Shown piece after piece: positions 1 through 64,000 of a DNA stretch of 64,000 bases; position 1 is the first letter of the stretch, and each line of letters starts with the position of its first letter. The notes under the pieces are model-generated. The model saw only the letters and a list, made by a program, of their open reading frames with translations, made no database searches and had not been told where the DNA came from. Both the position numbers and the translations under genes were made by a program. The stretch comes from Cyanophora paradoxa CCMP329. Lineage: Eukaryota; Plantae; Glaucophyta. The stretch covers positions 115,209-179,208 of the forward strand of contig QPMI01000174.1 of NCBI GenBank assembly GCA_004431415.1, written 5' to 3'.

Positions 1-6
1 GACTCA

Positions 7-8479: not shown

Positions 8480-8507
8480 TTTCTTTAATCTATATTCATA
8501 TAATAAA

Positions 8508-29948: not shown

Positions 29949-30016
<68 letters not shown>

Positions 30017-39614: not shown

Positions 39615-41687
39615 TCATACCTGTCTAGGATTGCCCTGACAGATCCACGAAGCTTGAGCGGAAGCTAACGGTTGCGGATGCATCTGAAAACTGCACGGCC
39701 GCGGAGGCCACCCTACTGCTACTATAGCCAAGAGCGTGGCATGCGTGTCAAAAGTCGCGGCGCTTCGGGGCGCCCTTGCGGCGGGATGCGCCGCCCCCGG
39801 AGGGCGCCTCCGCCGCGCCGCCGTCGCTCGGGCTGCTGCCCTCGGCGGGCCCCGGCCCCGGCCCCTCCTCGGAGCCGCCGTCACCGCGGGCGCGCTTCGG
39901 GAGCGAGGCGGCGCGGCCGGTGAAGGCTCGCGGGGACGTGCCCCCGATAGGCCGGTGGAGGGCCGCCGCCGCGCCTCGCCAGGGTCTCCCTCGCTCAGCT
40001 CGCGGTCGGGGGATGGGACGGGCGAGCGGGCCGGGGGTGGACCGAGGAGGGGGGTGGGGGCCTGCTGGAGCTGGGGGCCGCTGGGCGGGGCGGGGGCGGA
40101 CTCGGCGAGGGGCATGGGGTAGGCGCGCGGGCTGCCGCCCTCCTCGTGGTTGCCGGGGAGGAAGGGGGAGCAGAAGACGACGGCGGCGGTGACGTCGTCG
40201 TGGATCATACGGCGGGCGGGGCCCGGGGGCAGCTGCCCGACCATGCTCAGGCTCAGCCCGATCCCGTCCGCCGCCGTCTCGATGCACTTCTCTACGAGGC
40301 GCGCCGCCGCCGCCGCCGCGCCGTGCCGCCGCCCGGCGGCTTCCTCGCCCGGGCGCTCGCGCTCGCGGCCGGCGCTGCGGGGGGGCGGGGGGGCCCAGGG
40401 GACGCAGTCGGCGACGATGCGGACGACCTCGTCGTTGGAGAGCTCCTCGTAGAGCCCGTCCGAGGCGAGCACGAAGAAGTCGCCGGGCCGCACCGTCGCG
40501 CACCGCACCTCCGGCTCGGCGCTGATGTACGAGCGCTCGGGCACGCTCCTCCGCAGCGCCTCGGGCACGAGCTCCGCCAGGCCGGCCTTGAGGTACGCGT
40601 CCCCGAAGGCGCGAGTCACGAGGAGCGTCCCCCTCACGCGCAGCGTCCCCTCCTCTGCGATGCTCGCCTCATCGGGCATCACCGGCTCGTTCGTCACTGT
40701 CGACAGCACCGCGCCCGCGTCGCCTGCGCGTGCCGACCCAATTCAGCGCCGGCGCGGCGGTAACGCGCGCCCGCGAGTGCCGGGGCGCACCGGAGCGCTT
40801 TATGACCGCGGCGATCTCCTCTCTGGAGCGGGTGTTGTGGTCGTTCGAGAGCACCTCGCACGTGTACTTGCTGCGGTCGTGGGGGTCTCTTCGCCCCAGA
40901 ACCGCCCTAGAGTCGCCCGCGTTCGCCACGTAGAGCTTGTCACCCCGTAGCAATGCCAACTGCAGAACCTATCAGAAGCGGAACCGGTGCGCGGGCAGGG
41001 CACGGCGCACGAGTCCGCATGATCCGACACCGATAACGTCCAGGATTGCTGGGCCCGGCGGCGTTCCTGCGGACTTCTCTACGAGTTCCTTGATCTACGC
41101 AGAGAGCGAGTCAGGCAATTAGACTGTATTGACCAGAGAGTTTGGTTGCTCGTGCGCTGACCTTCCTGTGGACGTGCTCCTCCAGATACAAACTGCGGCA
41201 GGGCAGTTATGTGATGGGCGAGCAGTCTTCTTGCATGCGCGCGCATCCGACAGGACGACGCACCTATCCGCTTCCAAGAAGGCCGCTGAGAGCGCGGCTT
41301 CTGGACTTTTGATCCCCTCCGGGGAATCCAGGTGCTTCCTGACAATCCCAAGGAGGTTTTTCTTCAAGAAAGAAGCCACAGAGGTGCCGCCGTGCCTGCA
41401 GGGCGGGTGTGAGAGGCACGTTGGCGCGTGATTTCGCTGACGGGCAGGGCGTCCGCCGGCTACGGAGGCGCGTCCAGGCAAGAAGCGCACCCATCGAAGA
41501 CTGCCCAGACGTGTGAGGGCCCGGCAGGGCTAGATCTCGACGCGTCCTCGTCCGCTGCGAAGGCATCCTCAATCGTCTCGTTCGCTGCAAGCTGCGCGAC
41601 GGCCCAGCGGCCGCTTCCGCACGAGTCCTCCACAATCTCCAGTGCTTCAAGAGCGCACGAATTGGCCCTCCTCTTCCTGGGCGGCAT
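39615..41687 (-). CDS. Protein phosphatase 2C (PPM family)
   Basis: IEDA, WAVFDG, LYVANAGDSRAVLG, LSNDHN, VTRAFGD, FFVLASDGL, HDDVT; 3' end approximate. Confidence 0.92.
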
Positions 41688-45430: not shown

Positions 45431-45767
45431 TTGAATTCGCCCCTCATTCAGCGTTCTTCCCCCGTTTTCCTCTCCTCGTTTCTCTGCACACACAAATTAC
45501 CCGAGCCTGATTCTCCCTGACGGCCGGGTGCCGAAGTGTGCCACAATGAAGGGAGGCTGGGCTCATCAGGACCTTCGGCGGGGCGCCCCTCTGCTGGGCC
45601 CCTGTAGTGCCCTCTTCCCACAGACCCTTACCCGCTATCTCTCATGTCTGAAGAGCTTGCGTTGGTTGTATAACGTGACGTGTCAAGCAGGCGGCGAACA
45701 TGTCTTCGCCGTCTCCCATAAGCCATGCACACACTCATGGTGCGCGCCGCTTTGGGGGGTGGGACTA

Positions 45768-45857
45768 GCTGCCGAGGACGAAAGAATCGCTACCCGCGCT
45801 TAGGCTGAGGGTTCTTTGATCTCACTAGCGTCTCTTCCTAGAGCTCCCTGAGGCTGC
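45768..45857 (+). ncRNA. Box C/D snoRNA, LSU rRNA guide (one copy per unit)
   Basis: TACCCGCGCTT is antisense to conserved LSU AAGCGCGGGUA, shortly before a CTGA D' box; terminal CTGA. Confidence 0.7.
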
Positions 45858-46032
45858 CGCCCGCGTCCGCCCCCGACCGGCCCCGCCCCGCCCGCGAGCC
45901 TGACCGCCGCCGCCGCAGGCCACCCGACGGAACTCGCCGGCATCGTTCGGCCTCTACATCGTTCGGCCTCTACACACGTCCCTGCACGGTGCGCGGTACG
46001 AGGGTTTCGTTGCTGGGAGGCGGGCGGGCGGG

Positions 46033-46110
46033 GTGCAAGGAAGAAGTAAATAGTTATCCCTGTCTGAGAACGATAGCCGTGCGGATTTAATCACAGTTTG
46101 TCGGAGCGCC
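46033..46110 (+). ncRNA. snR38: Box C/D snoRNA, snR38/SNORD1 homologue (one copy per unit)
   Basis: AGTTATCCCTGT-CTGA, antisense to LSU ACAGGGAUAACU; the conserved snR38 guide plus D'. Confidence 0.85.
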
Positions 46111-46270
46111 CCCTCGCGCCCGCCGCGCGCCTCCAGCCCCCCCGCCCCTCGCGTCCGTTGGGCGGCCGCTGATCCGAGCGCCGACAGAGTGTGCACGGTG
46201 AGCCAAGAGCCTGCCAACGCTCGTCGCCGATCACGGTTCGCACGGGGCGCGCGGGGCCGGGGCGGGGCGG

Positions 46271-46357
46271 GTGCTGAGGATTAAACAAGTTTCATGCACC
46301 ACGCATAAATCCGTTGATGAAACCTATCACACCACACCAAACCTTGTATGAAGCATC
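46271..46357 (+). ncRNA. Box C/D snoRNA, SSU rRNA guide (one copy per unit)
   Basis: C-like TGAGGA, CATGCACCAC antisense to SSU GUGGUGCAUG, C' TGATGA, D-like ATGA, terminal stem. Confidence 0.7.
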
Positions 46358-46537
46358 GCCTAGCCCCTCGGGAGCTCGCTGCGTCGCCGGGCATTGACTG
46401 AGCGCGCACCCGCAGGCGCCGGCAACGCGCGGGGCGACGAGGCGCATCGGCAAGCGGGCGGGGGCCCTGCTCTCTTCGGCGCCCCTCTTCTGTTCCGCCG
46501 GTGCGGCCTGGGCGGGGCGTGGCGGGCGGGGCGGCGG

Positions 46538-46659
46538 GTCTCTGTGATGCTACAAGATGACGAGACATAAGGGATTGACCGCGGAGCGCTAGTTCATGTT
46601 TTATGGGCTGCGCTCCGAGGTCGCCCGCTGCTGACGTAAGGAGGCATTTGTCTGAGGCG
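46538..46659 (+). ncRNA. U15: Box C/D snoRNA, U15/SNORD15 homologue (one copy per unit)
   Basis: AGATGACGAG near box C and GAGGCATTTGT-CTGA at the 3' end, antisense to LSU CAAAUGCCUCGUCAUCU, as in U15. Confidence 0.85.
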
Positions 46660-46837
46660 ACCCTAGCCGCCAGCAGGGGGGCCCTCCGACCACGCCGCCG
46701 GCCGCCCTTTCAACTGACGACGGGACGCAGGGCCGGCGCGGCGCTGAGAGGCGATGCGAAGCCGACGCGGCGCGACCGAGCCGGCCTGCCGAGGTGCGCG
46801 GGGGCGTGTGCCGAGAGTAGAGGGGTTAGGCGGGGGC

Positions 46838-46929
46838 GTCGCGGTGATGTTCTGCTATCTGACACCTCTTGTTTGAATGGGGGCCCTCGGGCCTCCATGA
46901 ACGGAATTAGCTTTGCAGTTCTGATGCAA
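46838..46929 (+). ncRNA. Box C/D snoRNA, SNORD60/snR48-like (one copy per unit)
   Basis: GTGATGT box C, TCTGACACCTC antisense to LSU GAGGUGUCAGA, terminal CTGA. Confidence 0.75.
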
Positions 46930-47097
46930 TAGCCGGCTCGCGCCCCCTGCCCCCTCTCTCCCGGCACAGCAATCGCGTCTGACAAGGCGCCTTGCGAGCA
47001 GACGGAGCAAGGGGAGGCATCGGCAACGAGACGGGGCAACGCGCCGAGGGCGGACGGTGCGGGGCGGGCGGGGGCGGGGGCGGGGGCGGGCGCGATA

Positions 47098-47209
47098 GCC
47101 CAATGATTGCCCTCGAGGAGGTCTGCTTGAGCTGGCGCGGCCGCCGCCCCCCGGGCGCGCCCTAGCGCCGCAGCGAGCGATGGAGACCGGTTGATCTTAG
47201 TCTGAGGGC
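47098..47209 (+). ncRNA. Box C/D guide RNA, probable U2 snRNA (scaRNA-type) guide; copies in units 1-3
   Basis: GCCC/GGGC terminal stem, ATGATTG, TTGATCTTAG antisense to U2 CUAAGAUCAA before CTGA. Confidence 0.6.
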
Positions 47210-50200
47210 TCCACGCCCCCCGCGCCCCCGCCGCCCCCTCGCCCGCCCCTCACCCTCGCCCCGCAGGCCCCCGCAAGGCCGCTCTACCGCCGCGCCTCGA
47301 CCGACGCCCTCCGCTCGCGTGGTGCGCGCCGCTTCGGGGGGTGGGACTAGCTGCCGAGGACGAAAGAATCGCTACCCGCGCTTAGGCTGAGGGTTCTTTG
47401 ATCTCACAAGCGTCTCTTCCTAGAGCTCCCTGAGGCTGCCGCCCGCGCCCGCCCCCGACCGGCCCCGCCCCGCCCGCGAGCCTGACCGCCGCCGCCGCAG
47501 GCCACCCGACGCAACTCGCCGGCATCGTTCGGCCTCTACGTCGTTCGGCCTCTACACACGTCCCTGCACGGTGCGCGGTACGAGGGTTTCGTTGCTGGGA
47601 GGCGGGCGGGCGGGGTGCAAGGAAGAAGTAAATAGTTATCCCTGTCTGAGAACGATAGCCGTGCGGATTTAATCACAGTTTGTCGGAGCGCCCCCTCGCG
47701 CCCGCCGCGCGCCTCCAGCCCCCCCGCCCCTCGCGTCCGTTGGGCGGCCGCTGATCCGAGCGCCGACAGAGTGTGCACGGTGAGCCAAGAGCCTGCCAAC
47801 GCTCGTCGCCGATCACGGTTCGCACGGGGCGCGCGGGGCCGGGGCGGGGCGGGTGCTGAGGATTAAACAAGTTTCATGCACCACGCATAAATCCGTTGAT
47901 GAAACCTATCACACCACACCAAACCTTGTATGAAGCATCGCCTAGCCCCTCGGGAGCTCGCTGCGTCGCCGGGCATTGACTGAGCGCGCACCCGCAGGCG
48001 CCGGCAACGCGCGCGGCGACGAGGCGCATCGGCAAGCGGGCCGGCGACCCTGCTCTCTTCGGCGCCCCTCTTCTGTTCCGCCGGTGCGGCCTGGGCGGGG
48101 CGGGGCGGGCGGGGCGGCGGGTCTCTGTGATGCTACAAGATGACGAGACATAAGGGATTGACCGCGGAGCGCTAGTTCATGTTTTATGGGCTGCGCTCCG
48201 AGGTCGCCCGCTGCTGACGTAAGGAGGCATTTGTCTGAGGCGACCCTAGCCGCTAGCCCGGGGGCCCCCCGACCACGCCGCCGGCCGCCCTTTCAACTGA
48301 CGACGGGACGCAGGGCCGGCGCGGCGCTGAGAGGCGATGCGAAGCCGACGCGGCGCGACCGAGCCGGCCTGCCGAGGTGCGCGGGGGCGTGTGCCGAGAG
48401 TAGAGGGGTTAGGCGGGGGCGTCGCGGTGATGTTCTGCTATCTGACACCTCTTGTTTGAATGGGGGCCCTCGGGCCTCCATGAACGGAATTAGCTTTGCA
48501 GTTCTGATGCAATAGCCGGCTCGCGCCCCCTGCCCCCTCTCTCCCGGCACAACAATCGCGTCTGACAAGGCGCCTTGCGAGCAGACGGAGCAAGGGGAGG
48601 CATCGGCAACGAGACGGGGCAACGCGCGGAGGGCGGACGGTGCGGGGCGGGCGGGGGCGGGGGCGGGGGCGGGCGCGATAGCCCAATGATTGCCCTCGAG
48701 GAGGTCTGCTTGAGCTGGCGCGGCCGCCGCCCCCCGGGCGCGCCCTAGCGCCGCCGCGAGCGATGGAGACCGGTTGATCTTAGTCTGAGGGCTCCACGCC
48801 CCCCGCGCCCCCGCCGCCCCCTCGCCCGCCCCTCACCCTCGCCCCGCAGGCCCCCGCAAGGCCGCTCTACCGCCGCGCCTCGACCGACGCCCTCCGATCG
48901 CGTGGTGCGCGCCGCTTCGGGGGGTGGGACTAGCTGCCGAGGACGAAAGAATCGCTACCCGCGCTTAGGCTGAGGGTTCTTTGATCTCACAAGCGTCTCT
49001 TCCTAGAGCTCCCTGAGGCTGCCGCCCGCGCCCGCCCCCGACCGGCCCCGCCCCGCCCGCGAGCCTGACCGCCGCCGCCGCAGGCCACCCGACGGAACTC
49101 GCCGGCATCGTTCGGCCTCTACACACGTCCCTGCACGGTGCGCGGTACGAGGGTTTCGTTGCTGGGAGGCGGGCGGGCGGGGTGCAAGGAAGAAGTAAAT
49201 AGTTATCCCTGTCTGAGAACGATAGCCGTGCGGATTTAATCACAGTTTGTCGGAGCGCCCCCTCGCGCCCGCCGCGCGCCTCCAGCCCCCCGCCCTCGCG
49301 TCCGTTGGGCGGCCGCTGATCCGAGCGCCGACAGAGTGTGCACGGTGAGCCAAGAGCCTGCCAACGCTCGTCGCCGATCACGGTTCGCACGGGGCGCGCG
49401 GGGCCGGGGCGGGGCGGGTGCTGAGGATTAAACAAGTTTCATGCACCACGCATAAATCCGTTGATGAAACCTATCACACCACACCAAACCTTGTATGAAG
49501 CATCGCCTAGCCCCTCGGGAGCTCGCTGCGTCGCCGGGCATTGACTGAGCGCGCACCCGCAGGCGCCGGCAACGCGCGCGGCGACGAGGCGCATCGGCAA
49601 GCGGGCCGGCGACCCTGCTCTCTTCGGCGCCCCTCTTCTGTTCCGCCGGTGCGGCCTGGGCGGGGCGGGGCGGGCGGGGCGGCGGGTCTCTGTGATGCTA
49701 CAAGATGACGAGACATAAGGGATTGACCGCGGAGCGCTAGTTCATGTTTTATGGGCTGCGCTCCGAGGTCGCCCGCTGCTGACGTAAGGAGGCATTTGTC
49801 TGAGGCGACCCTAGCCGCTAGCCCGGGGGCCCCCCGACCACGCCGCCGGCCGCCCTTTCAACTGACGACGGGACGCAGGGCCGGCGCGGCGCTGAGAGGC
49901 GATGCGAAGCCGACGCGGCGCGACCGAGCCGGCCTGCCGAGGTGCGCGGGGGCGTGTGCCGAGAGTAGAGGGGTTAGGCGGGGGCGTCGCGGTGATGTTC
50001 TGCTATCTGACACCTCTTGTTTGAATGGGGGCCCTCGGGCCTCCATGAACGGAATTAGCTTTGCAGTTCTGATGCAATAGCCGGCTCGCGCCCCCTGCCC
50101 CCTCTCTCCCGGCACAACAATCGCGTCTGACAAGGCGCCTTGCGAGCAGACGGAGCAAGGGAGGCATCGGCAACGAGACGGGGCAACGCGCGGAGGGCGG

Positions 50201-51795
50201 ACGGTGCGGGGCGGGCGGGGCGGGGGCGGGGCGGGCGCGATAGCCCAATGATTGCCCTCGAGGAGGTCTGCTTGAGCTGGCGCGGCCGCCGCCCCCGGGC
50301 GCGCCCTAGCGCCGCCGCGAGCGATGGAGACCGGTTGATCTTAGTCTGAGGGCTCCACGCCCCCGCGCCCCGCCGCCCCTCGCCCGCCCCTCACCCTCGC
50401 CCGCAGGCCCCGCAAGGCCGCTCTACCGCCGCGCCTCGACCGACGCCCTCCGATCGCGTGGTGCGCGCCGCTTCGGGGGGTGGGACTAGCTGCCGAGGAC
50501 GAAAGAATCGCTACCCGCGCTTAGGCTGAGGGTTCTTTGATCTCACAAGCGTCTCTTCCTAGAGCTCCCTGAGGCTGCCGCCCGCGCCCGCCCCCGACCG
50601 GCCCCGCCCCGCCCGCGAGCCTGACCGCCGCCGCCGCAGGCCACCCGACGGAACTCGCCGGCATCGTTCGGCCTCTACACACGTCCCTGCACGGTGCGCG
50701 GTACGAGGGTTTCGTTGCTGGGAGGCGGGCGGGCGGGGTGCAAGGAAGAAGTAAATAGTTATCCCTGTCTGAGAACGATAGCCGTGCGGATTTAATCACA
50801 GTTTGTCGGAGCGCCCCCTCGCGCCCGCCGCGCGCCTCCAGCCCCCCCGCCCCTCGCGTCCGTTGGGCGGCCGCTGATCCGAGCGCCGACAGAGTGTGCA
50901 CGGTGAGCCAAGAGCCTGCCAACGCTCGTCGCCGATCACGGTTCGCACGGGGCGCGCGGGGCCGGGGCGGGGCGGGTGCTGAGGATTAAACAAGTTTCAT
51001 GCACCACGCATAAATCCGTTGATGAAACCTATCACACCACACCAAACCTTGTATGAAGCATCGCCTAGCCCCTCGGGAGCTCGCTGCGTCGCCGGGCATT
51101 GACTGAGCGCGCACCCGCAGGCGCCGGCAACGCGCGCGGCGGCGAGGCGCATCGGCAAGCGGGCCGGCGACCCTGCTCTCTTCGGCGCCCCTCTTCTGTT
51201 CCGCCGGTGCGGCCTGGGCGGGGCGTGGCGGGCGGGGCGGCGGGTCTCTGTGATGCTACAAGATGACGAGACATAAGGGATTGACCGCGGAGCGCTAGTT
51301 CATGTTTTATGGGCTGTGCTCCGAGGTCGCCCGCTGCTGACGTAAGGAGGCATTTGTCTGAGGCGACCCTAGCCGCTAGCAGGGGGGCCCTCCGACCACG
51401 CCGCCGGCCGCCCTTTCAACTGACGACGGGACGCAGGGCCGGCGCGGCGCTGAGAGGCGATGCGAAGCCGACACGGCGCGACCGAGCCGGCCTGCCGAGG
51501 TGCGCGGGGGCGTGTGCCGAGAGTAGAGGGGTTAGGCGGGGGCGTCGCGGTGATGTTCTGCTATCTGACACCTCTTGTTTGAATGGGGGCCCTCGGGCCT
51601 CCATGAACGGAATTAGCTTTGCAGTTCTGATGCAATAGCCCAATTCTGCACCGGGTGGGGCCGTTCATAGAAGAGAGGGCGTTCTGTCCCGCGCACCTCT
51701 GACTTGCATCGCCTCTGCAGGCCACGCACCTCAAGCACCGGTGAGCCGTCTTAGAGAGCCGGTACCCGTGTAGGACGGGGAGAGTGGAGGGGGGT

Positions 51796-51926
51796 GCCCG
51801 CTGATTGCCAACGAGGAGGTCTCCTAACGCTGGCGCCGCCGACGCCTCCTAGGCGTGCACGGCGCCCCCTGGGCCCGTGCCAGTGCCGCCGCGAGCAATG
51901 CAGACCGATTGATCTTATCTGAGGGC
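51796..51926 (+). ncRNA. Diverged paralogue of the putative U2 guide RNA
   Basis: Keeps TGATTGCC, CGAGGAGGTCT, AGACCG and TTGATCTTA-T-CTGAGGGC while the internal hairpin has diverged. Confidence 0.6.
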
Positions 51927-52151
51927 CCCCCCCCCAATCCATTCTTCGCCACAAGCATCCTTCTGCTCGCTTGCCGGCTCTTCTGACCACGCGCTGCGTA
52001 CACGTAGTGTCGGGCGGACCAGCGGGCAGCGGAACGCGTGGACTCCCTCCACCGGGCCAGTCTAGTTGATTGTAGTTAGTAAATCATCGAACAATTGAAC
52101 GACAATCAAATTACATCGGAGCAGAGGCAGAGGCGGGGCGGGTATCAGAGG

Positions 52152-55100
52152 CTAGAGGGCGCCGGGGCGGAAGGGGCCGGCGAGGAGGTCGCGGGCGGCG
52201 CTGCGGGGGATGGAGGGGTCGAGGCGGAGGCAGCCGCGGCGCCAGAGCTCCTCGCACGCCGCCCCCGCCGCCGCCTTCTCCGCCCTCTCCCGCTTGGGGC
52301 CCTCCCGCACGAACTCGAGGAGCTCGGCGCCGGCCCCCGCGGCCGCGGCCGGCAGGGCGAGGCGGACCTTGACTCGGAAGAGCGGCGCGTGGGGCGGCCC
52401 CTCCCTCTCAACGAGGGTGAAGGCTATTTAGATGCTCGCGCACGCGATAGAGGCGCCGGGACGGCCGGGGGAATCCCGCTGTTCGACCGTCACCGCCAGC
52501 CGAATTACGCGAGCCTCGTGGCGCGAGCTGCAGCCTCTGCTAGCTCTGAGTGATCCGCTCCACACTAGCGCGGCCCCTCCCTCTCGGCGCGCAGGCCCTG
52601 CAGGCTCGCGCGCAGGCAGGGCATCCCGTACTGCTCCAGCAGCTGCCGCGCCGCGCCGGCCCCCGCCTCCGCGCCCCCGGCGGCGGCGCCGGCGGCGGAG
52701 GCGGCGCCGGCCACCCGCCGGCACCAGCGGCCGCGGAAGAAGAAGCGGGTGCCGGCGGTGCTGGAGGGGTGGGCCAGGCGGCGCCGGCCGGAGCTGCGGC
52801 TGGCGGCGCGGAGGGCTGGAGGCGGAGAGGCGCGAACGGGGGCCCGTTGGGCCCCGAGCTCGGGCTCGGCCACAGCGCGCCCTGCGGAGCAATCTCAAGA
52901 GGGGAAGCGATCCGCGAAATCGGAGGGGCGGAGGGGCGGACGCGGGCGTCGAGCCACTCGCAGGCGGCCTTCGCCGCCGCGGCGCGGGCGGCGTCCTTGG
53001 AGGGGCCCCGCCCCTCGAACTCCGCCCCCTCGCCGCCCGGCGCCGGGAAGGGGAAGCGCAGGCGCGCGGCGAAGGGCGGGCCGCTCGGCGAGTACTGCTC
53101 GGCCGGCTGCCACGCCGACCTCGGCAGGCCCGGCGGCTCGGCGGCGACGTGCGGGGCCCCGGCGGCCATCCGGAGGCTGCCGGCGGCGTCAGCTCCGACA
53201 TCGACAGAAGGCGGAGCTCGCGGGGAAAGCCGCGGGCCTGGCGAGGAGGGAGGACCAGGCGTACTGGGCCAGCCAGGCCCCGCGGGCCTCCTCGGGGCCT
53301 GGGCCTACGGGCGGGCCCGAGCGCGAGGCGGCGCGGGGCCGCCAGCGGGCCTCCCTGAAGTCGGGGGGGAGGGTGAGGAGCCCGGCGTCGTCGAGCGCCG
53401 CCAGCGCCGCCGCCTCCGCCCCCCGCACCGCCCCCCGCTTCGTCTCCTCGGGCCCCCCGCGGAAGGCGCGGGGGAGCGCGGCGGGGAGGCCGGCCGCGGG
53501 GCCCGAGAGCCGCGCGGTGGCGACGAAGACGGGCTTGTGGGGCGGGCCGCTCGCCTCCGCCTCCGTCTCGATCTCCACGCCCAGCTCCGCCCGCACGTGG
53601 CTCACCAAGCTGCGCCCGAGCAAGTCTTCAAGCTCCACGAGCGGGAGCTTTTTATCGGGCTGAAGCTTCTCAGATTTTAAACCTAGGCTTGTCAGCTCAA
53701 AGACGTGCGTCGAGGAGCGGACCGGGAGGAGTACTGGCGGAGGAACTCGTCGCGGGACTCGATGCGGGCGTAGGGCGGGGCCGCCTCGTCGTCCTCGCCG
53801 TCGCTGCCGCCGCTGCTCGCGTCGTCCCCCGCGCCCCCGCCCTGGGGCTCGTCGCGGGGCTCGCTCTGGAGGGTTTCGACGGCGCGCTGCATGACCGCCT
53901 CCCGCAGCTCCGTCTGCCCGAACGCCACCTCCGCTGCCGCCGCCGCCGGCGCGGGCGCCCGTCGGGCCGACTCCGGGAGAGGAAAGCGACGGGGACGCAC
54001 CCGGGGAGCCCTCGTGGAACATGCAGACGAAGGTCGAGGCGGCGTTGCGCGCGCGCCCGCGCGACTGCACCAGCTGCCGCCACGACGTCGCCCCGTCGTA
54101 CCTGCCCGCCCCAAGGCGCCCTCGCCGGCGCCCCGTCAGTCTGATTTGTGCCGAGACTAAACTTTCTGATAGTGCTAGCTAAACCCAGGACGGCAGGCGG
54201 TCGATCTGATCGCTTGAAATCTAGACGAGGACGTGACGGACCTGACGACGAGCTGGCAGGAGGGGATGTCCAGGCCCTCCTGCATCGCGGAGGCGACCCG
54301 CGGCTGCGCGTCAGAGGGGCCGCAAGGGGAGATCTAGAGGAGGGGAGGCGAAAGACTGTAGAGAGCATGCCTCGGCGATGCTCGTCGCGACGAGCCTGCC
54401 GCGCGCGCGCGTGTCGGCGTCGTCGGCCCGAGAGTGGGGACGAGGTGTAAGGGCGGGGCCGGCCTCGTGCGCACACGTTGACTGTGCCGTCGCGGAAGCG
54501 CTGGACGGCCCCCTTCTGCTGCGCGATCGTCATCCCGCCCTCGCCCTGCCCCACCAGCCGCTGCCCCGCCCCCGTGAGCCCTCCAAGCGTCGCTCGCGGT
54601 CGCTCGGGTGGAAGCTGCGGGACCTCGGCGCGGATGGGGACGGGGCGCTGGGCGCCGGTGGCGTTGAGGGCGCGCTGGAGGGCCCCCGCCGCGCTCCGCT
54701 CCTCCACGAAGACGATGGCCCGAAAGCCCGGGCCGGCCGCCGCCTCCGCCCCGCCGGAGGGCGCCGCCGCCTCCGCGGCGTGCTCGGCGAGGATCTGCTC
54801 GAGCCGCTTGAACTTCTCGACGCTCCTCACGGACTCCTCGCGGGGCCTCGGGAGGAAGTCGGCCCAGGAACCGGCGTCCGACCCTTCGGCAGCAAGAGGA
54901 GCGAGGGCTGGCATGGCGACGTCCGAGCGCGTCAAAGCTCGAAGCAGGGGATGGAGGGGAGGTGGCGGCCCTAGGCCTCCGTTCGCGGACCGGTGCCATA
55001 GCCGGCGAGGGAGGCCTCGGCGGCGGCGAGGAGCGTCTGCATCGCCGCCGGGGGCCCCCTCACCGTCGCCCCCGCCGCGAAGACGTGCCGCATCGCCCGG

Positions 55101-58042
55101 GCGCTCCCGGCGAGGTGCCGCCGGCCCTCCTCCAGCCCGAAGTCGAACTGCGGCGCACTCGATCAAATTCAAGGAGCTCGAGCGCAAGGCGACGAAGCAA
55201 GGAGGGAGAGTATAAGAGAATAATTAAGAGAAAGCAAGTAAGACCAAGGGACACGCGAATGGGAGAGAGGGGGGCGGGGCGGGGCACCATGAGGCGCCAG
55301 GCGTCGCTGGCGACCTCGAGCCAGCGCCAGAGGCACGCCGCCTCCACCACCCCCGCCTCGGGCCCGAGCGCTAGCTCGCCGCCCCCGCCCCGCGCCCTCG
55401 CCTGCGCCCGCAAGCTTCGAATTCGCCAGGGGTGGGGCGAGGCGGCGGCGGGGGGCCGGACCGCCTCCGTGAGCTCCTGCGCCCGCTCCCGCGCCCTCTT
55501 CGAGTATTCCTCCGTCGCCCGCGGCACATCCCCCGCCGGCGGCTCCTGCCTCGCAATCGATCGCACGGGCAGCCAGCATCAGACCGGGCGCCGCGCCCGT
55601 TTCATTCTCCCGCACCTCGGAGGCGGGAAGGAGGCGCTCGGCGGCGTCTATGAGGCGGCGGCACGCCTCCTGGAAGGCCCGCTCCTCGGGGCCCAGCCGC
55701 ACCACCACCTGCAATCGCACGGCTAGGATAAGTGTACGAGTAAGCAAATTAGAACAGCAGCAAGCTTAAAATCTACGCATACCTTCTCCATGCGCGCCCG
55801 CGACACTGCCGCCCCCAGCTCCTCCTGAGTCGAGTTAGAGTGAAGCTCTAACATTGACGCGGGCGTGCCGCCCGTACCTTGAAATCATCGTGCACGGACT
55901 GGATGCGGGCGCGCATGCGGTCTGAAGAGCGCATGCGGCCTGCATGCAGGGCGCACGCGCGCTGGCTTGAGCGACGCGTCTCGGGGCGGGTCTGAGCTGC
56001 AGGCGTGAGGGCCCGCGCGCACGCATGAGCCTGCGGAGCTCGTTGATGGTGCGCTCGAGGCTCAGGTCCCCCACGACGGGCGTCGCCGTTAGGCCCAGGA
56101 TCTGGCGCGAGGCGAGCTTGATCGTGATCGCAAGCAGGAACCGTTTTCATTAACGTTTGAGGCGTCGATCGCGACGTAGGCGAGGCGGAGCGTGCGGGCG
56201 GGCGCGGGCGCGGACCGAGGGGACGGGGCGGCCGGCGCGGCGGAGCGGGTGGTAGTGCTCGCGGAGGATGCGGTGGAAGGGGTGCTGCTTCTTCACGTGG
56301 TGGCACTCGTCGATCACCTGCGGCGATAGGAATGGCAGGGTCGAACACAGAAGTCCAGCGAAGCTGGCTACACATAGCGCGCACCAAGAGGGCGAAGTGG
56401 TGCAGGGCGGGCCGGTCGGCGTCCTCGCCCGGGGCCTCGAGGGCGCTCAGCAGCAGGCCCGCCGTGCACACGAACCCGTCCTTCTCCCGCAGCTCCCGCC
56501 CCCTGCGCACGCCGCCACGGTGCACGCCGCGCATCACCCGCAGCCGCACCCGCCGGCCGCGGCCGGCCGGGCAGCCGAGCGCAGGGGCGGGGATCGGAGA
56601 CGGGGAAATAAAGGTCGAGGAGTGTGTGTGTACGGCGAACCAGTGGATGCGGGTCCCAGCGGTGTTGGTCCCGATCCGCCACGGCCGGAGCCGCTCCACC
56701 ATGCGCCCGCCCTGTAAGGCAGTCGGCTTTCTGGAGATGCCGGCGTCGAATAACAAAAACGAAATCGACGAGCCTGCTGGTCGGAGAGCGTGTTGGTCTG
56801 CACGATGAACAGAACTGCGCATCGATCGCGATCAGACGGTATCATGATCAAGGAAGGTCCTGGGGTGGCTTCGAATTCCGCGTGCGCGCCCTTCCCGCCT
56901 TGGAGGAGCGCGCGCTCGGCGACCGCCATCGCGACCTCCGTCTTGCCGGCGCCTGCCCGCTCAGATGAGCGCCGGGGAGAGGCCGCAAGGCAGATCTGGA
57001 TCCGGAGGGGAGCTCAAGGAGGTTGGGCGGGTGTGGGCGGAGGGTGGGGGGGGGGGGGGGGGTGGAGGGGGGGGTGGAGGTGGAAAGAAGAGGGGGAGAG
57101 GGGCCGGGGGGGGGAGGGAGAAGAGGGGGCGGAAGAGGATGGGGAAGGGGAAGTGGGGGAAGGGGGAAGGGGATTAAAGGGGAAGCGGGGGGGGGGGGGA
57201 AGGGGGGGAGGGGAAGGGGGCGGGGAGGGAGGACGGAGGGGGAGGGGGGGCACCGGTGGGCAGGCAGACGATGAGGTTCTCGCGGCTCGCGCCGGCCTCA
57301 TCCACGAGGGCCTGCGGCGCGGACGCGGCCGCGCGTGGTCAGCGCGGGGGTTACGCGGGGGCTCGACGCCCGGGGCTGCACCTTCTGATATTCGCGCACT
57401 GCGCAGAAGAGAGGCCAGTCAGTTGCAAGCGACCGCGACTGTAATCTAGCGAGTTCATGTACCGCGCGCGCTCACGCACGTGTGCCGTAGACATTTGGAG
57501 AGAGGTTGAGCTGGTTCAAGTGCCTTGCAAGCTCTTCAGTGCTCCGCCCGGCGTCGAGTCCTGAGCTGTTCCCGCTACCGCTCGCGCTCGAGATAGACCC
57601 CGGCGCATGGACTAAGCTTGGCGGGCCGCTGCTGACGCTACCGACGCTGAACGAGCTCGGCGCAGCTTCAGAGGCAGGCCGGGGCCCTTCGCGATCGGCT
57701 GCAAGGTCGAGGCGCAGCGCGGCGAGCCTCTCAGGGTCCTTGCTGATTGAAAACAGGTCGAGCTCAGGCGGCGCGATGACGATGCTGTAGAACTCGCGCA
57801 GAAGGTTTTTGACATGCTCGCGCGGCGGGTACTTTCGCAGCTTGAGGTCCAGAACGTCCCAGCCTGCGAGAGGATGAGAGCCGGCGGCGCGCAGCAGCGC
57901 ATACGTGCGCACCGCGCATGTCGGCGTCGACGGCGCGTGCGTTCGCCACGAACTCGGCGAACGTCCAGTCGGGCTGAGCGAAGACGACGTAATTGCTGAA
58001 GACGAGCTTCGCCTTGTCGAACACTTGCGCATGAAGCTGCAT
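52152..58042 (-). CDS. Dicer/RIG-I-type SF2 helicase with three C-terminal dsRBD-like domains; no RNase III or PAZ
   Basis: VREYQK..NLIVCLPT/GAGKT, VIDECHH, ILGLTATP, AIVFVEER, RLVGQG..FRDGTVNVLVATSIAEEGLDIP, QSRGRAR; dsRBD motifs SGPPHKPVFVATARL, GRGPSKDAARAAAAKAAC, GPPHAPLFRVKV..KAAAGAACEEL. Start at 58042 inferred. Confidence 0.85.
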
Positions 58043-58335
58043 TCCGACCGACCAGAGTGCTGCTCTCCCGCGGAGCCGAAGGCCAAGGCCTCGGCGCCGG
58101 CCACCTCGCTTGCGGCCGACGCGTACGCGCGCGCGCGCGTCGGGCCGTCGGCAGGCCGCGCGCCCTGCGCGTGTTCGCTGGCGCCCGCAATAGCGTATAG
58201 CGAGCTGCCAAGAATTCGCGTACCAGTCCGATACCGGTACCCGTCAAGCTCGAGGTCTGTTCGACCGGAAGTTCAGCCGAAAGATGCCGGCCCTGAGCTC
58301 CCCCTGCGCGCCCTGCCGCAACAAGTGGAGTAAAG
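58043..58335. promoter_or_regulatory. Putative bidirectional promoter between the helicase and RNase III genes
   Basis: Only ~290 bp between the inferred divergent ATGs; no specific elements identified. Confidence 0.4.
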
Positions 58336-61300
58336 ATGACTTCGAACACGATGGATGACGAGGCGATTCGGCGTGCGCTCCGCGCGCTGGGCGTGCAGAA
58401 GCCCGCTGCGAAGCTGGTGGAGGCGCTGCGGTCCCCGAAGGCCGAGATTTGGGACCGCATTCGGCTTTTCGATAAGGCGGTTGAGGTGAATGCGCGCCTC
58501 GCTGCGCTGCGGCTTTCTCTCATCTCGGCTCGGTGCATGCGCAGGATCTCTGCGGGCTCTACGTATACGGCGCGTTCCCCGAGGCCGATCAGGGCGCCCT
58601 TACTGACCGGTTCGTGCCGCGCCCGTGTGCTAGCGCGCTGCAGCTGACGCGGCCGCGGCCGCCACACGTGCACATGTACATGTACAGAGTCCATGGACTT
58701 GTAGCGACGAGCGTCGTCGCGCAAGTGGAGCGCCAGGCCGGCCTGAAGGAGAAGTTCGGCCCCGACCTCGCATTGCGCGACGTCATCGCAGCGATCGTGC
58801 GCATTTCCGGCCGCGCCGCCCGAGCGCCGCATGCAGAGCGCTGATCATGAGCGACGCCCTCCAGTTTACACTGCACGCCCCCACGACCGCATCAGATGTG
58901 CTGCATAAGCTGCTCCTCGAGCCGCACGCGAGCAGCGCCGGCAGAAACCCGGTGCGCATGCGGAACCCTGGCCTCGCGCGCACCATCGAGCATCGGGCCG
59001 CGCTCACGCGTCGGGCGATCCGCAGCACGCGCTGGCGCACGAGGTGTGCGGCCCCCTCTCCGTGCACATGGAAGCCACGCCCTGCGGCACCCGCCGGGCC
59101 CAAGTCAAGACTGGTGCGTGCGGTCGAGGCGCGCCGCGCCGCGCCCGCACGCGTACGAGGGACGGCGGTTGATGCCTCGCAGCGCGAGGCGGGTCGTTCA
59201 CGCGGGAGGGGCCGGACAAGCAGTCGGCGACCCACCGGGCATGCCTAGCCGCCTTGGTATGCGTCCACCTAGGCCTTGAGCTTGAGCTCGCGCCTTCAAC
59301 TGATCTTCGCGGCAGCTGCACGAGTTCCGCACGGTCGACGAGAAGAAGCACCGGCTGCGCCTGGAGGCCCGCGGCGACGGCGGCGTCGCCTGCCTGCGCC
59401 GCCGCGCCCCCGAGGGCGCCGAGAAGGAGGAGGAGGAGGAGCTTTTTGCGGTGGAGCCGGAGGCGGGAGATCTAGATGCGGACCCGGCCGGGGGCGCGGC
59501 GGCCCCCCAGGAGCGCGCGAGCGCCGAGGAGCGGGCCGCCCTCCACTACTACCGCCACCGGCGGGCGCTTCTCGCGCCCGCGGGGGCCCCCGCCGGTGCG
59601 GCCGCGAGACGAGCTGCCGTGACGCCGGCCGGCCTCTAAATGAAGGCCTCCGCAGTCCCGGACCTGGACAAGAAGCTTGTGGAGAGGGCCAAGGAGGTGC
59701 TGCGGGGCAGGGTGCAGGAGCCCGAGGCGCCGCAGCCCGGCGGGGCCGGCGCCCCGGGCTTCGTCCTCCTCTCCGACCTCGCCGCCTACATCGCCCGCAA
59801 GCTGCGCGCCGCCAACCAGGCCCCCGCCGCCGCCCAGTGCGCACGCGCGCCGCCGCGTACCCCGCGCTCCGCCCCGCCCGATGCGTCGGCCGGCGTGCGC
59901 AGGGTGACGGCGGAGCGCCTGGAGGAGGCGCTGCGGACGCGGCCGGAGGCGGCGGGGCGGTTCACGGTGGAGGGCGAGGGCGAGGCGCGGCGCGTGCGCG
60001 CCGACTTCCACTTCGAACGGGACCTCGGCGTCGTGCACCCGACGCTCGCCCCCGAGGCCCGCCCTCCCGCCCTCCCTCCTGCCTCCCCTTCGCTGCGAGA
60101 GCTTGAGTCGTCGCCTGCGCAGAGTGCGCCGGAGGAGCCGGCGGCGACGCTCGTGGCCCGCGCCGACTTCGTGAAGAGCCTGCGGAAGCAGAAGGGGCTC
60201 CTCACCTGCTACGGCCGCCTGAAGAGCATCCCCTTCTTCCCCGCCGCCTTCTTCGAGGCGAGGGACGCCCGCCCGCGGCCGGCCGACGGCGGCGTCCTCC
60301 TGAGCGCGGCCGGGCGCAGGCGAAGGAGATGCACCGGAGCATCGGCAAGCCCCGCGCCGCCCGCGCCGCCGTCGCCGTCTTCGTCGACCTCCGCGCCGCC
60401 GCCAGCGCGGGGTACCCCTTCCTTGTCACCCCGGAAGGTCCCTCCCCTTCTCTCCCCGCCTCGAGCTCGCCGCGGGCGCGCCTCACCGGCGGCGGCGGCG
60501 GGGGCGGCAGGCGTGGTGCTGACGGCGAACGGGCTGCCCATCCCCGAGCGGCACGTCACCCTCGTCCAGGAGACCGCCGCCGGGCCCCCGAAGCCCTTCA
60601 GGCGCTCCGACTTCGTCGCTGCGTCGCAGGTGCAGCCGCCCCGTCGCCCCCACGCTGTTCGCCCGTGACGGCGGCGGGCAGGCCCCCGCGGGAGGCGAGC
60701 AGGCGCCTGAGGCCTCGAGCGGAGAGCCGGAGGCGGTCGCTCCAGCGATGCCGGAGCCGGTCCCTGCACCTAAGGCGCCGGCCGCGGCGCCGGCCGCGGC
60801 GCCGGCCGCCTCCGTGGCTCCCGCCGCGGCGCCGCCCTCGCCGCCGCCCCCTTCGAAGCCCAAGGGCGTGGCCGGGGCCATCTTGGAGTACTACAGGTCG
60901 CGCCGGGCCGGGCCCGCCGGCCTCGAACTGCCGCCCTCCGCCGCCGCCGGCGACGACGACGCGCGCCTCGCCGCCGCCTGCTGCGATGCCCTCGGCCTCC
61001 TCCTCGAGACGGTGCCGCCGCTCGCGCTCGACCCGATCGCGACCCGACCCGTCCTGACGCGTACGCCGGCTCCGCTGCAGCCGGAGGGCGGCGGCGGGCC
61101 GATGCGGGTGTCGCGGCCGTCCCTCACAGACGAGCGCCTCGAGGCGGTGGCCGTCGCCTGCGGCGTGGCGCCCTTTGCCCGCCCGGCGCTCCTGCGGCGC
61201 GCCCTCACGCACTCGACCTACGCCCAAGTCTGCCCCGAGGACGAGGCGCGCGCACGCGCCGCTCTCTTCTTCTTTCTTCCCTCGCCCGCCCGCGCGCCTT

Positions 61301-64000
61301 ACTCGGTCGAGACGCGCGCAGGCGGCGGAGAGCTGCAGCTACGAGCGGCTCGAGTTCCTGGGGGACAAGGTCCTCTCCCTCGCCCTCGCCCACGCCGCCT
61401 TCCACGCCACCGCCGGCCGCCCCGGCGCCCACGCCGCCTGGCGCACCGCCCGCGGCCGCATCCAGAGCAACGCCTCCCTCGGTGGAATCGCGGGGCCGGG
61501 GCCGGGCGGCCTGGGCCTGACGCGGCACGTGCGGGCCTGGTCGGGCTTCGACTCGGAGGCGGCGGCGCGGGGGCGGGAGGCGCTGCAGCGGGCGGCGGGC
61601 GGGCGGTGGCAGCCGCCGCAGCCGCTGGCGGAGAGTAAGGTGCCGGGCGACCTGCTCGAGGCCTTCATCGGGGCCATCTACGTCGACAAGGCCCGCCCCA
61701 CCACGCCCCGCCCCGCAAAGCGTCCCCCTCGAGCTCACGATGGGGGCAGGGGCTGGAGGCGGTGGAGCGGTTCGTGCGGGGGGCGGTGCTGCGGCCCGAG
61801 GTGCTCCGGGAGGCCGGCCTCGAGCTCGAGGAGGGCCCCCTCGGTGCGTCGGACACGCGGAGTCGTACCGCAGCTTTGCCGCCCTCCGACTGACCGCCCC
61901 CGCCAGAGCGCGTGGTGCCTCTCAACGCCGGCCACTTCTTCGCCGACGCCGACGAGACCGGTGCGCGCCCCTGGCTTGCGCTCCACTCTGAACTGCAGGG
62001 TTGCAAAGCTCGCCCTTGATGCCGGATGATGCAGGAGAGCTGGCCCGCGCGGCGCCCCGCGCGGGGCGCCCCGCCGGCGAGGGCGGCTCGAGCGCCGGGG
62101 GGTCGGAGGCGGGGGTTGGGGCCGGCGCGGACCCCGTCCTGGGCGGCTTCGAGCGCGTCCGCGGCAACGACAAGCACTCCCGCGGGACGCAGTGCGTGCC
62201 GCCCGCCCGCGAAGCCAGCGCCGGCTCCAAGCCTGAGCCAAGAAGCCGCCTCGAGGAGCTTCGGCCTAACCACAGTCCCGCGCGCGCGCCGCAGCTTCCG
62301 CCTGGCGGACCAGGCCACCTCGTACCGGTGCCCCCCTTCCCTCCCGCCCTCCCTCTCTCTTCTTCGAATTCGGGCTCGAGCCTGGGGCGGGGCGGGGCGG
62401 GGCCAGGTCGGTGGGGGACATGGCCCTCCTCCACGAGCTCATCCTCCGCGCCCACCGCGCCGTCCGCCCGCCGCCTCCCGCCCCCGGCCCTCATCCCCGC
62501 CTCGAGCCGCTCGCCGCTTGCTGCGCAGGGGGAGGTGCACTACACGAACGAGATCCTCACGGGCGTCACGCGCTTCGCCCTCGACCTCGACGGCCTCGAC
62601 TTCTTCCAGGCGCCCCCGCCCCTTCAACTTTACTGATCCCTGTCTGGACCTCTATCTGGACCCTGCTTAGAAGCTGCCTGTATCTAAATTCGAACGTCTT
62701 CCCCAAATTTAAGCTTCCCAAACGCCACCCTCTTCTCATCTCCTTCTCGCGCAGGAGGTGGGGCGGGATGCCTCCGGGGGCGTGGCGAGGGTGGCGGGGC
62801 TGGTGCAGGGGGCGCTGCGGGCGCTGCTCCCCGAGGACACCGACGTCGCCTGCGTCCTCCTCGACGCCTCCAACCCCACCAAGGTCCGCGCTATCTGGGT
62901 CTATCGCCAGTGTGTAATTGGCGCTCTTTCTTAGGCTCGAGGGCCCCTTTCTTCCTGGGGCCGGCCCCGCTAGCTCCGCACCCCTGTCCCTCCTGATCGC
63001 GATCGACGGCGGCGCAGCGCTCGCAGCACGTGCACTGGCCGGGGGTGCACCTGCGGCTGGAGGACTGCCGCCGCCTCCTCGACTGGCTCGCCTGCCGCCT
63101 CGCCGCCGACTGCACCGCCCTCGAGCTGGCAGCGCCGGCGCCGGCGCCGGCGCTTGCGCCCGAGCTCGAGGCGAGGGCCGAGCCGGGAGCTGCGGCGGAG
63201 GCGGGGAGCGGGGGGCGTCTCGGCCGCAAGCCGGACGGCCGGGCGCCCCTCGAGATGCCTTCGCACGTGCCCGAGTTCCCGCCCGCCGCCCCGGGTGCGC
63301 ACGCTCCGTTCCCGCCCTCCTCTCGCCGCACGCGCCGCCCGGCGAGCCCCGCGGCAGAGAGCTCGAGCACACGAGAGCGGCCGGAGCCCGACCCGGGCCG
63401 CGAAGGCTGCCGCGGGGGCGCCTGGCCCATCTCTGCGGATCCGGAGATCGGGGGGACAGCGCCGGCGCCGGAGCCCGGCGCGGCGGCGGGGAGCGACGAG
63501 AGCGAGGAGGAGGAGGCGGCGGGGGCGGCTGCGGTCGTCGGGGACGCTTCGGCGGCGCAGGCGGCGGCGGAGGAGAAGGCGGGGAGGGAGGGGGAGGTGC
63601 GGGAGGCGGCGTACTGGCGCAAGCGACTGGACCCCGACGTCTACCTCAGCAGGAAGCTCCGCGTCTACCTCTCCGACAAGTTCGACGACAAGACCAAGTG
63701 CGCTCTTCCCGTCCCAGTGTATACTCAATTATAATAACCGCCTGTCGTTGCTTCCGTCCATCTCACTGCGTGGGGGCGCGTCCCCGCAGGCGGCCGGCGG
63801 GGCGGACGCTGGTACAGCACGCGGGCGGGCCGCTGGTCGACGAGACGGGACGGCCCGTCACGAGCGGCCCCGGCGGGGCCCCGGCCTTCCTGACCCACCG
63901 CGAGGTACGCAAGCGCGCCGCAGGGCGCTGCGGGCCGCGCCTGAGGGCGGCTGCAGGTCCTGCGCCTCACCTGCCTGCGGGACCCGGGCGGCTGGGCGCC
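58336..64000 (+). CDS. Multidomain protein: degenerate RNase III - dsRBD - degenerate Tpt1/KptA - intact RNase III - NCLDV-type AEP primase; 3' end beyond window
   Basis: RRALTHS..YERLEFLGD..GDLLEAFIGAIYVD (61190-61690); AEP motifs RFALDLD, SQHVHWP, LDPDVY..LRVYLSDK; Tpt1-like VFVDLRAAASAGYPFLVTPEGVVLT; exons can be joined in frame through GT/GC-AG introns. Confidence 0.78.

Follow-up and report, generated by a model that had tools for sequence, protein, structure and literature searches.

Organization of the Locus

The window, that is, the whole 64,000-nt stretch of Cyanophora paradoxa DNA analysed here, contains a divergent, head-to-head pair of spliced genes (Table 1). The minus-strand gene encodes a helicase, whereas the plus-strand gene encodes an RNase III fused to a likely AEP (primase-polymerase) domain. 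Each gene was modelled with 26 exons inside the window. The 50 introns of the two models are 38-301 nt long, 39 of them having GT-AG and 11 having GC-AG borders. Most splice sites were placed by reading frame and splice signals, together with the lengths of the contigs and, for the helicase, its public model. RNA contigs were taken from four sequencing runs, which were judged to be RNA from their spliced joints.

The start codons are located at 58042 (minus) and 58336 (plus), in agreement with the spacing of about 290 bp given in the first-pass annotation. RNA contig cover of the minus gene stops at 58198-58202, and that of the plus gene starts at 58249. The mean intergenic distance in C. paradoxa is 770 bp (PMC6704402), so that the short spacing by itself says little. 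The chance that the head-to-head neighbour of a given gene is an RNase III gene was estimated post hoc at about 2-4e-4 (approximately 5 RNase III genes among 25,831). No inverted repeat that would mark a past inversion was found at the locus. Argonaute-hook repeats were not found in the two proteins, the WG/GW count being only 1 and 3.

Table 1. Features of the divergent gene pair, in window coordinates
Feature	Position	Strand	Remarks
Dicer/RLR-type helicase gene	52152..58042	-	26 modelled exons, ~1168 aa, no nuclease domain
dsRBD/DUF283-like repeat 3 (candidate)	52218..52624	-	Pfam dsrm E 0.001, Dicer_dimer E 0.0012 (under cut-off)
dsRBD-like repeat 2	52867..53148	-	Pfam dsrm E 1.4e-4, 22.8 bits, just below cut-off 23
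DUF283/dsRBD-like repeat 1	53366..53593	-	z 6.1 against 14 DUF283 domains; no Pfam match
Helicase core Hel1-Hel2i-Hel2-pincer	53845..57483	-	motifs Q, I, Ia, II, III, IV, V, VI
N-terminal region, family not recognised	57724..58042	-	~90 aa; missing in public model
Divergent intergenic region	58043..58335	.	293 bp, between the start codons
RNase III-AEP fusion gene	58336..64000	+	26 modelled exons, 1277 aa within window, continues past edge
Degenerate RNase III-like domain	58396..58858	+	catalytic glutamates lost; predicted 38-nt intron inside
Weak dsRBD-like segment	58886..59321	+	z 3.1; 1/150 shuffles as high
Tpt1/KptA-like domain, probably inactive	59589..60563	+	lacks the tetrad His and the HGT motif
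RNase III domain of eukaryotic Dicer type, intact	61141..61800	+	catalytic E, D, N, K, D, E
AEP domain (likely), resembling NCLDV AEP_C962R	62145..63790	+	motifs I, II, candidate III
AEP motif I	62574-62594	+	hhhDhD/E, aligned with 38 viral AEP segments
AEP motif II	63021-63038	+	sxH, aligned with 38 viral AEP segments
AEP motif III candidate	63627-63644	+	hD/E; placed by eye, automatic alignment shifts it

The Helicase Gene

The product of the minus-strand gene corresponds to a named public C. paradoxa protein, and 913 of the 932 residues aligned with that independent model are identical. The public model lacks the first 204 residues, including Walker A. In RNA contigs, the first intron of the gene (57864-57912) is removed. 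The complete set of Dicer/RIG-I helicase motifs previously claimed was located, motif II reading DECHH, and the gene is nuclease-free as proposed: no RNase III was found in it.

The top PDB matches of the exon carrying motif II are Arabidopsis DCL1, the ancestral Dicer AncD1D2, and DCL3, with RIG-I lower. The predicted helicase structure matches MDA5, LGP2, the ancestral Dicer helicase, and DRH-1, and MDA5 and LGP2 rank above Dicer; the C-terminal repeats are left unresolved in this structure. No Pfam family of the RIG-I-like zinc-binding C-terminal domain was found at E values up to 1, and dsrm and Dicer_dimer matches are observed there instead. The z scores of repeats 1, 2, and 3 against DUF283 are 6.1, 2.6, and 4.9, respectively. 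Repeats 1 and 2 stand among the three dsRBD/DUF283-like domains originally described, but repeat 3 requires one additional nucleotide (+1) near 52700, where RNA contigs from three runs show one gap. It also requires an intron (52424-52596) that RNA contigs cross unspliced. Judging from the sequence, repeat 3 is a candidate, unproven part of the helicase protein. The assignment of the protein to the Dicer/RLR type, ending in DUF283-like repeats, is supported.

The RNase III-AEP Fusion Gene

The plus-strand gene is a single open frame up to the window edge, and one RNA contig adds approximately 1200 nt past the end. A single spliced RNA contig carries 60678-61010, 61320-61688, and 63357-63697, and the gaps of 164 and 881 nt are exactly those of the model. 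This means that the RNase III and AEP exons belong to one gene. The first-pass annotation had named several independent genes in this region as a finding that would speak against its reading; this is ruled out for the RNase III and AEP parts.

The intact RNase III domain keeps all six catalytic residues, including the eukaryotic Asn and Lys. In an alignment of 26 rows, E11, D15, and D110 are invariant, and N50, K106, and E113 are nearly so. The nearest sequences are eukaryotic Dicers: of the 38 RNase III matches, 37 contain a pair of RNase III domains, and no fewer than 19 contain DUF283. The scores against IIIa and IIIb are nearly equal (85.3 vs 83.7 bits), and a quick tree does not assign the domain to either.

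It should be mentioned that a degenerate RNase III-like domain, which had not been singled out before, is located at the N terminus. Its score of 8.2 bits was reached by none of 1104 decoys. The domain retains the helix region that forms the dimer face in RNase III. Thus, within the window, the proposed "RNase III domain(s)" include one intact copy but not an active tandem pair. The dsRBD claimed for this gene is present as a segment, but it is weak (Table 1). No PAZ or other ruler was found in the scanned exons or in the public helicase model within the window, the exon-level scans being weak.

Boundaries of the remote domains were placed by eye. With fixed windows, the true segments reached z scores of only 2.4-4.5, whereas an unrelated segment scored as high as 5.6. 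Plain shuffle z scores are too generous, and decoy tests were used in their place. The AEP and Tpt1-like parts each show collinear similarity over the whole domain, with 0 of 150 decoys reaching the same z.

The Tpt1-fold domain previously proposed is collinear with Tpt1/KptA RNA 2'-phosphotransferase over both lobes (global z 6.8), but it does not seem to be an active module. The catalytic tetrad of Tpt1/KptA is Arg-His-Arg-Arg (PMC6333775). R311 and R374 align with two of the arginines, whereas the His is gone and the fourth position is K440 or ambiguous. The NAD-binding HGT motif is also absent. Because of these losses, the domain looks catalytically dead. Its local HMM score was 1.5 bits, equalled by 5 of 337 decoys. 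The predicted fold of the read-through frame had a pLDDT of 48, and no structure matched it within limits of E 0.001 or Z 5; PDB and Atlas searches with this frame returned nothing relevant, the Atlas result being blank. A second Tpt1 RNA lobe at residues 150-290 was ruled out (z 1.6 and -0.4).

The AEP motifs were defined according to PMC5862659. A low-complexity insert of approximately 140 residues precedes the motif III candidate. The motif I-II region scored 7.0 bits, and none of 786 decoys scored as high. Independently of the alignment, an Atlas search placed AEP_C962R clusters at the top (0.85), which is a lead only. All eight viral AEP segments examined belong to PF23162, a family found in 0 of 301 bacterial genomes. 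A Pfam/PHROG scan of the exons gave no AEP or Tpt1 family match, PDB searches with the AEP exons gave nothing relevant, and the DNA pattern of motif II retrieved 22 viral loci, none of them an AEP. The AEP of the earlier claim holds in motifs I and II, with a candidate motif III, but as a remote match; the domain is likely to be a primase-polymerase.

Comparison with Known Systems

Canonical Dicers (Arabidopsis DCL1, 7eld; ancestral AncD1D2, 9mw6; Drosophila Dicer-2, 7w0e) likewise have a DECH helicase with Hel2i, a DUF283-like domain behind it, and an RNase III with E-D-N-K-D-E. In the Cyanophora pair, however, the helicase and RNase III are on opposite strands in separate transcripts, one RNase III is dead, PAZ was not seen in the window, and repeated DUF283/dsRBD, Tpt1-like, and AEP domains are present. 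RIG-I-like receptors and Dicer-related helicases (MDA5, 5jch; LGP2, 5jb2; C. elegans DRH-1, 8t5s) are also stand-alone, nuclease-free duplex-RNA helicases and are the best fold matches. DRH proteins act in trans for Dicer or RdRP. Unlike RIG-I-like receptors, the Cyanophora protein has dsRBD/DUF283-like repeats in place of the zinc-binding C-terminal domain, and it shows no CARD.

In helicase-less Dicers (budding-yeast Dcr1, trypanosome DCLs, and Dictyostelium DrnA/B), the RNase III part functions without an attached helicase; in Dcr1, a single RNase III occurs without PAZ. To our knowledge, none of them carries a polymerase domain or lies head to head with its helicase. In the KREN/KREPB pairs of the trypanosome editosome, active and degenerate RNase III domains cut one strand, where a nucleotidyl transferase then acts. 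An active RNase III is similarly found alongside a degenerate one in the Cyanophora fusion. The KREN/KREPB pairs are, however, separate, guide-RNA-directed mitochondrial proteins, and they work with a TUTase where Cyanophora has an AEP. AEPs of the NCLDV-herpesvirus clade (Pfam AEP_C962R, PrimPol kin) share the collinear N-terminal TH strand, the DxD of motif I, and the H of motif II. The Cyanophora AEP differs in being fused to RNase III instead of the D5 helicase, in its strong divergence, and in the long insert ahead of motif III.

Small RNAs and a Possible Mechanism

RNase III domains act as pairs, each of which cuts one strand to leave a 3'-OH and a 5'-phosphate, and AEPs with motifs I-III polymerise nucleotides. 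The small RNAs of C. paradoxa are mainly 21-nt, strand-biased, and unphased, and four RdRP homologues have been reported (PMC3700990). These homologues make it unlikely that the AEP replaces RdRP, as had been suggested. The published Dicer match is weak (E 4e-9), and the CDS listed for its contig is annotated as a DHX58-like helicase (PMC3700990). Among the C. paradoxa CDS rows listed, no CDS is annotated as Dicer or DCL (PMC3700990), and four further CDSs are annotated as bacterial-type RNase III. No orthologue of the fusion was found among the 38 RNase III matches or in the public protein sets searched. A further search with the plus gene gave three matches, none being an orthologue: two had Pfam sets resembling those of Dicer, and the third was named as fungal. 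A match of 16 residues was discarded as chance.

The two genes are tentatively considered to form a Dicer-derived two-part machine of the small-RNA pathway, in which a helicase is combined with a one-strand RNase III nick and AEP synthesis. The pair is probably this alga's substitute for Dicer, which has so far not been found there. The data show the structures of the two genes, the transcript shared by RNase III and AEP, and which catalytic sites are intact and which are dead, and we infer that the two proteins cooperate. The helicase would bind double-stranded RNA and travel along it. The intact RNase III and the dead domain are predicted to form a pair, so that only one strand would be nicked. 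The fused AEP would likely prime or extend RNA at the cut, and the Tpt1-like domain would grip phosphorylated RNA ends.

This model is favoured by the motif II exon, the DUF283-like repeats placed as in Dicer, the Dicer-type RNase III with its catalytic residues and shared transcript, the decoy results for the dead RNase III and AEP, the Atlas lead, and the 21-nt RNAs made alongside a weak, helicase-annotated Dicer match (PMC3700990). Both halves are Dicer-typed, as the first-pass annotation held when it proposed a rebuilt Dicer-like machine, but a normal two-site Dicer is not found: one RNase III is dead and no PAZ or ruler was seen in the window. Other points also speak against the two-part machine. 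The gene-dense genome makes proximity cheap (PMC6704402), the helicase fold ranks MDA5 and LGP2 over Dicer, and the RNase III is not placed as IIIa or IIIb. The four bacterial-type RNase III CDSs and four RdRP homologues could produce the small RNAs instead. The searches yielded no orthologue in which linkage could be compared, domain boundaries were set by eye, and the C terminus lies beyond the window. A bolder form, in which Dicer is replaced by a nick-and-synthesise enzyme whose virus-type AEP and one-sided RNase III make or extend short antisense RNAs on helicase-fed duplexes, is unlikely.

It is somewhat unlikely that the two genes are neighbours with no relation to each other, the helicase working alone as a sensor of dsRNA or as a partner of RdRP (DRH/LGP2-like) and the RNase III-AEP protein acting in other RNA processing or nucleic-acid repair. 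The mean intergenic distance (PMC6704402), the top rank of MDA5 and LGP2, and the four RdRP homologues as possible helicase partners fit this arrangement. In addition, end repair and priming are roles linked with the Tpt1 and AEP families (PMC9503650, PMC5862659). However, each half was Dicer-typed independently, and the post hoc estimate of chance adjacency also argues against it.

Cutting of both strands by a split Dicer, in which the intact RNase III would homodimerise as in budding-yeast Dcr1 and the other domains (dead RNase III, Tpt1-like, and AEP) would only bind RNA or have a minor role, seems rather improbable. The complete catalytic set with the eukaryotic Asn and Lys and the 21-nt RNAs agree with it, but the retained dimer-face helix region favours pairing within the chain, AEP motifs I and II are kept along with a candidate motif III, and duplex dicing fits the strong strand bias less well. 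That the AEP and Tpt1 likenesses are chance, or relics of a decaying RNase III gene, is very improbable: the exons without Pfam or PHROG match, the local Tpt1 score equalled by decoys, and the low-confidence, unmatched fold would suit it, but the frame stays open over 26 exons with RNA support, the whole-domain similarities exceed all decoys, and the assignment to this AEP family is the same by two independent methods.

Significance

C. paradoxa is a cultured alga, and its branch of the plant lineage has been studied less than any other. It has abundant strand-biased 21-nt RNAs and no convincing Dicer on record, and the two-part machine proposed here offers a testable candidate locus. The RNase III-AEP fusion would join RNA cutting to nucleotide synthesis within one chain; no description of such a fusion was found in the literature searched, although a prior mention may exist. 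The seeming absence of the fusion from the public protein sets searched would explain its being overlooked. Such a fusion would widen the range of enzymes known to produce silencing RNAs, and, if the nick-and-synthesise reading were true, RNA silencing in this alga would be driven by an AEP.

Gene models and transcripts

The window is eukaryotic DNA of about 70% GC with short introns. Both genes, the Dicer/RLR-type helicase gene on the minus strand and the divergent fusion gene on the plus strand, were modelled from reading frames and splice signals. Each has 26 exons inside the window, and the 50 modelled introns are GT-AG (39) or GC-AG (11). The start codons lie at 58042 (minus) and 58336 (plus), and the gap of 293 bp agrees with the head-to-head spacing of about 290 bp noted in the first-pass annotation.

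Four sequencing runs, presumed to be RNA and drawn from at most three samples, supplied contigs that were mapped to 51500-64000. They leave out modelled introns, and the three checkable exon distances were all exact (plus gene: 164 and 881 nt; minus gene: 236 nt). Among the longest aligned pieces, one RNA contig of 5096 nt carries the plus gene's exons for the linker, the RNase III and the primase-polymerase (AEP), and it reaches about 1200 nt past the window end. By length, this contig has 1650 nt upstream, compared with 1586 modelled coding bases plus a leader; therefore, the N-terminal exons are most likely on it as well. Several independent plus-strand genes, which had been named as a possible refutation, are thus refuted for RNase III and AEP.

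A helicase exon had a single EukProt match, EP00741_Cyanophora_paradoxa_P003955, identical to the minus gene model at 913 of 932 aligned residues, which assigns the window to the glaucophyte Cyanophora paradoxa. This protein begins downstream of Walker A and departs from the model in the region of the final two exons. The RNase III and AEP exons were found in none of the public proteins searched, so that the plus gene seems to be unannotated or mis-annotated in public sets.

Features of the window
Feature	Position	Strand	Remarks
Reverse transcriptase and RNase H, two overlapping frames	1-4052		adjoins AT-rich island
AT-rich island	5000-11400		GC 0.36-0.52 vs ~0.70
A32-type packaging ATPase, in AT-rich island	5173-6015		Pfam Pox_A32 E 5e-11
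F-box gene	28055-30500	+	ordinary neighbour
PP2C phosphatase gene	39615-40742	-	ordinary neighbour
Tandem array	45700-51950		about four copies, unit ~1560-1580 bp, 95-100% identical in parts
N-terminal segment of helicase, no family	57724-58042	-	~90 aa, ordered-looking; weak SAM_BAF E 0.049
Segment between dsRBD and Tpt1-like domain, no family	59322-59588	+	~90 aa, ordered-looking

The tandem array stops just beyond the helicase gene 3' end. The AT-rich island has the look of a Polinton-like virus or virophage inserted into the genome. Its four intronless ORFs had no Pfam match, capsid labels are a guess, and no relatives were found in the viral contigs searched. The adjoining element is, by its frames, a non-LTR-like retroelement.

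The helicase gene

The minus gene product has about 1168 aa. Motifs Q, I, Ia, II (DECHH), III, IV, V and VI follow the N-terminal region in order. DEAD, ResIII and Helicase_C exceed the Pfam cut-off; dsrm (E 1.4e-4) and Dicer_dimer (E 0.0012) are under it. No RNase III was found in this gene, which bears out the earlier description of a nuclease-free Dicer/RIG-I helicase. The motif II exon is closest in PDB to DCL1, AncD1D2 and DCL3, and the motif VI exon weakly matches MDA5. The predicted helicase structure matches MDA5, LGP2, the ancestral Dicer helicase, RIG-I and DRH-1.

Scored against 14 DUF283 domains, the three C-terminal repeats gave z values of 6.1, 2.6 and 4.9; the values against nine dsRBDs were 2.7, 4.3 and 3.8. 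Within 52007-52880, the RNA contigs from three runs carry a base that the window lacks, which would restore the frame of repeat 3; the frame break at about 52660-52730 would be accounted for by a one-base error of the assembly or a one-base allelic difference. The same contigs read through the last modelled intron unspliced. This means that translation would stop before repeat 3; the three dsRBD/DUF283-like domains proposed earlier thus become two or three, the third being uncertain in the protein. An intron near 51740-52006 is spliced in the RNA contigs with plus-strand GT-AG borders, and the contigs continue into the last helicase exons (51719-52880). The unspliced last intron may, we infer, be due to a natural antisense transcript across the 3' end of the helicase gene.

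The fusion gene

The RNase III domain at aa 661-835 is above the Pfam cut-off and keeps the catalytic set E, D, N, K, D and E; its IIIa or IIIb ancestry is not separable. Among 1.84 billion representatives it had 38 matches (best E 2.9e-8). Two RNase III domains are present in 37 of them and DUF283 in at least 19, a lower bound because six proteins were seen by their best five families only. In a comparison with 42 collected proteins, the whole plus model matched via RNase III alone. One of the RNase III matches, P0031 from Cavostelium, is an unusual Dicer-like fusion in which a 3'-5' exonuclease and a dsRBD are joined to a pair of RNase III domains.

Residues 21-116 are RNase III-like (8.2 bits, 0/1104 decoys as high; global z 6.4, 0/150 decoys) but without the catalytic glutamates, and in the better register basic residues occupy both acid positions of the first motif. 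Of the RNase III domain(s) proposed, one is therefore intact; the degenerate N-terminal one had not been singled out in the first-pass annotation. The dsRBD, placed after the degenerate domain, is a weak match. PAZ was not seen in the exons scanned within the window, nor were WG/GW repeats.

Residues 293-508 are collinear with 16 bacterial KptA (RNA 2'-phosphotransferase) sequences at a global z of 6.8 (0/150 decoys); the local score of 1.5 bits was reached by 5/337 decoys. In Tpt1, the Arg-His-Arg-Arg tetrad and HGT motif are essential or NAD-binding, according to PMC6333775. Since both are broken here, the Tpt1 fold proposed earlier persists as a collinear likeness, probably a binding relic.

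Residues 905-1225 are collinear with 38 giant-virus AEP segments, dereplicated from 57 usable of 66 loci, with PF23162 (AEP_C962R) in 8/8 checked. The score of 7.0 bits was reached by none of 786 decoys; the global z was 6.0, with 0/150 decoys by z and 1/150 by raw score. Independently, the Atlas placed PF23162 clusters top at 0.85 with low recognition, which is a lead only. Motifs I and II conform to the definitions in PMC5862659, and a motif III candidate was placed by eye past an insert of ~140 aa. The AEP assignment is likely, through a remote match. The boundaries of the RNase III-like, Tpt1-like and AEP segments were picked by eye; with fixed windows, z was just 2.4, 2.5 and 4.5 for these segments, and an unrelated segment gave up to 5.6.

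Discussion

Gross et al. (PMC3700990) report that the small RNAs of Cyanophora paradoxa are exonic, mainly 21-nt, often antisense-biased and unphased; they also list two contigs for Argonaute, four homologues of RdRP and a single weak Dicer match (E 4e-9). The CDS on the Dicer-match contig (1710 nt, annotated as DHX58-like helicase) may be the present minus gene. Among the CDS rows listed from its supplement (26,587 rows), at least four others are annotated as bacterial-type RNase III and none as Dicer or DCL. With four RdRP homologues reported, the AEP is unlikely to stand in for RdRP as had been suggested earlier. The passages of PMC6704402 (Price et al.) consulted give 25,831 genes and a mean intergenic distance of 770 bp, and do not mention Dicer.

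Both halves are Dicer-typed, and a Dicer-derived pair is therefore favoured; its most probable form, at slightly under even odds, combines nicking with AEP action. RNase III domains act as pairs in which one domain cuts one strand, so a chain that combines a live with a dead domain is predicted to nick one strand, and the AEP could extend the 3'-OH at the nick. Trypanosome editosomes, in which an active and a dead RNase III nick, are a precedent. The head-to-head layout is just what would result if, in an ancestral Dicer, the promoter together with the helicase half had been inverted; no breakpoint evidence for it was found in the sequence.

A strong rival, though less probable, is that the genes are independent neighbours: the 293-bp spacing is ordinary for this genome, but the identity of the neighbour is not, its chance being about 2e-4 (a post hoc figure, assuming five RNase III genes). 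The other form of the Dicer-derived pair, a split Dicer dicing through homodimers of the intact RNase III, would use the conserved catalytic set and leave the degenerate domain aside; this is less probable still. That the AEP and Tpt1-like domains are spurious or relic is improbable given the decoy comparisons, and a minor concern.

Helicases encoded apart from Dicer, such as DRH, are known, as are Dicers that lack a helicase. The present pair differs from canonical Dicer in having two genes and one active RNase III, and plausibly works like it. An RNase III-AEP fusion was found neither among the 38 RNase III matches nor in the literature searched, which covered result listings and passages of PMC9503650. 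A categorically new, AEP-driven silencing enzyme is doubtful. The locus is real and is a variant arrangement of Dicer-type parts, in which nick-and-extend would fit strand-biased small RNAs.
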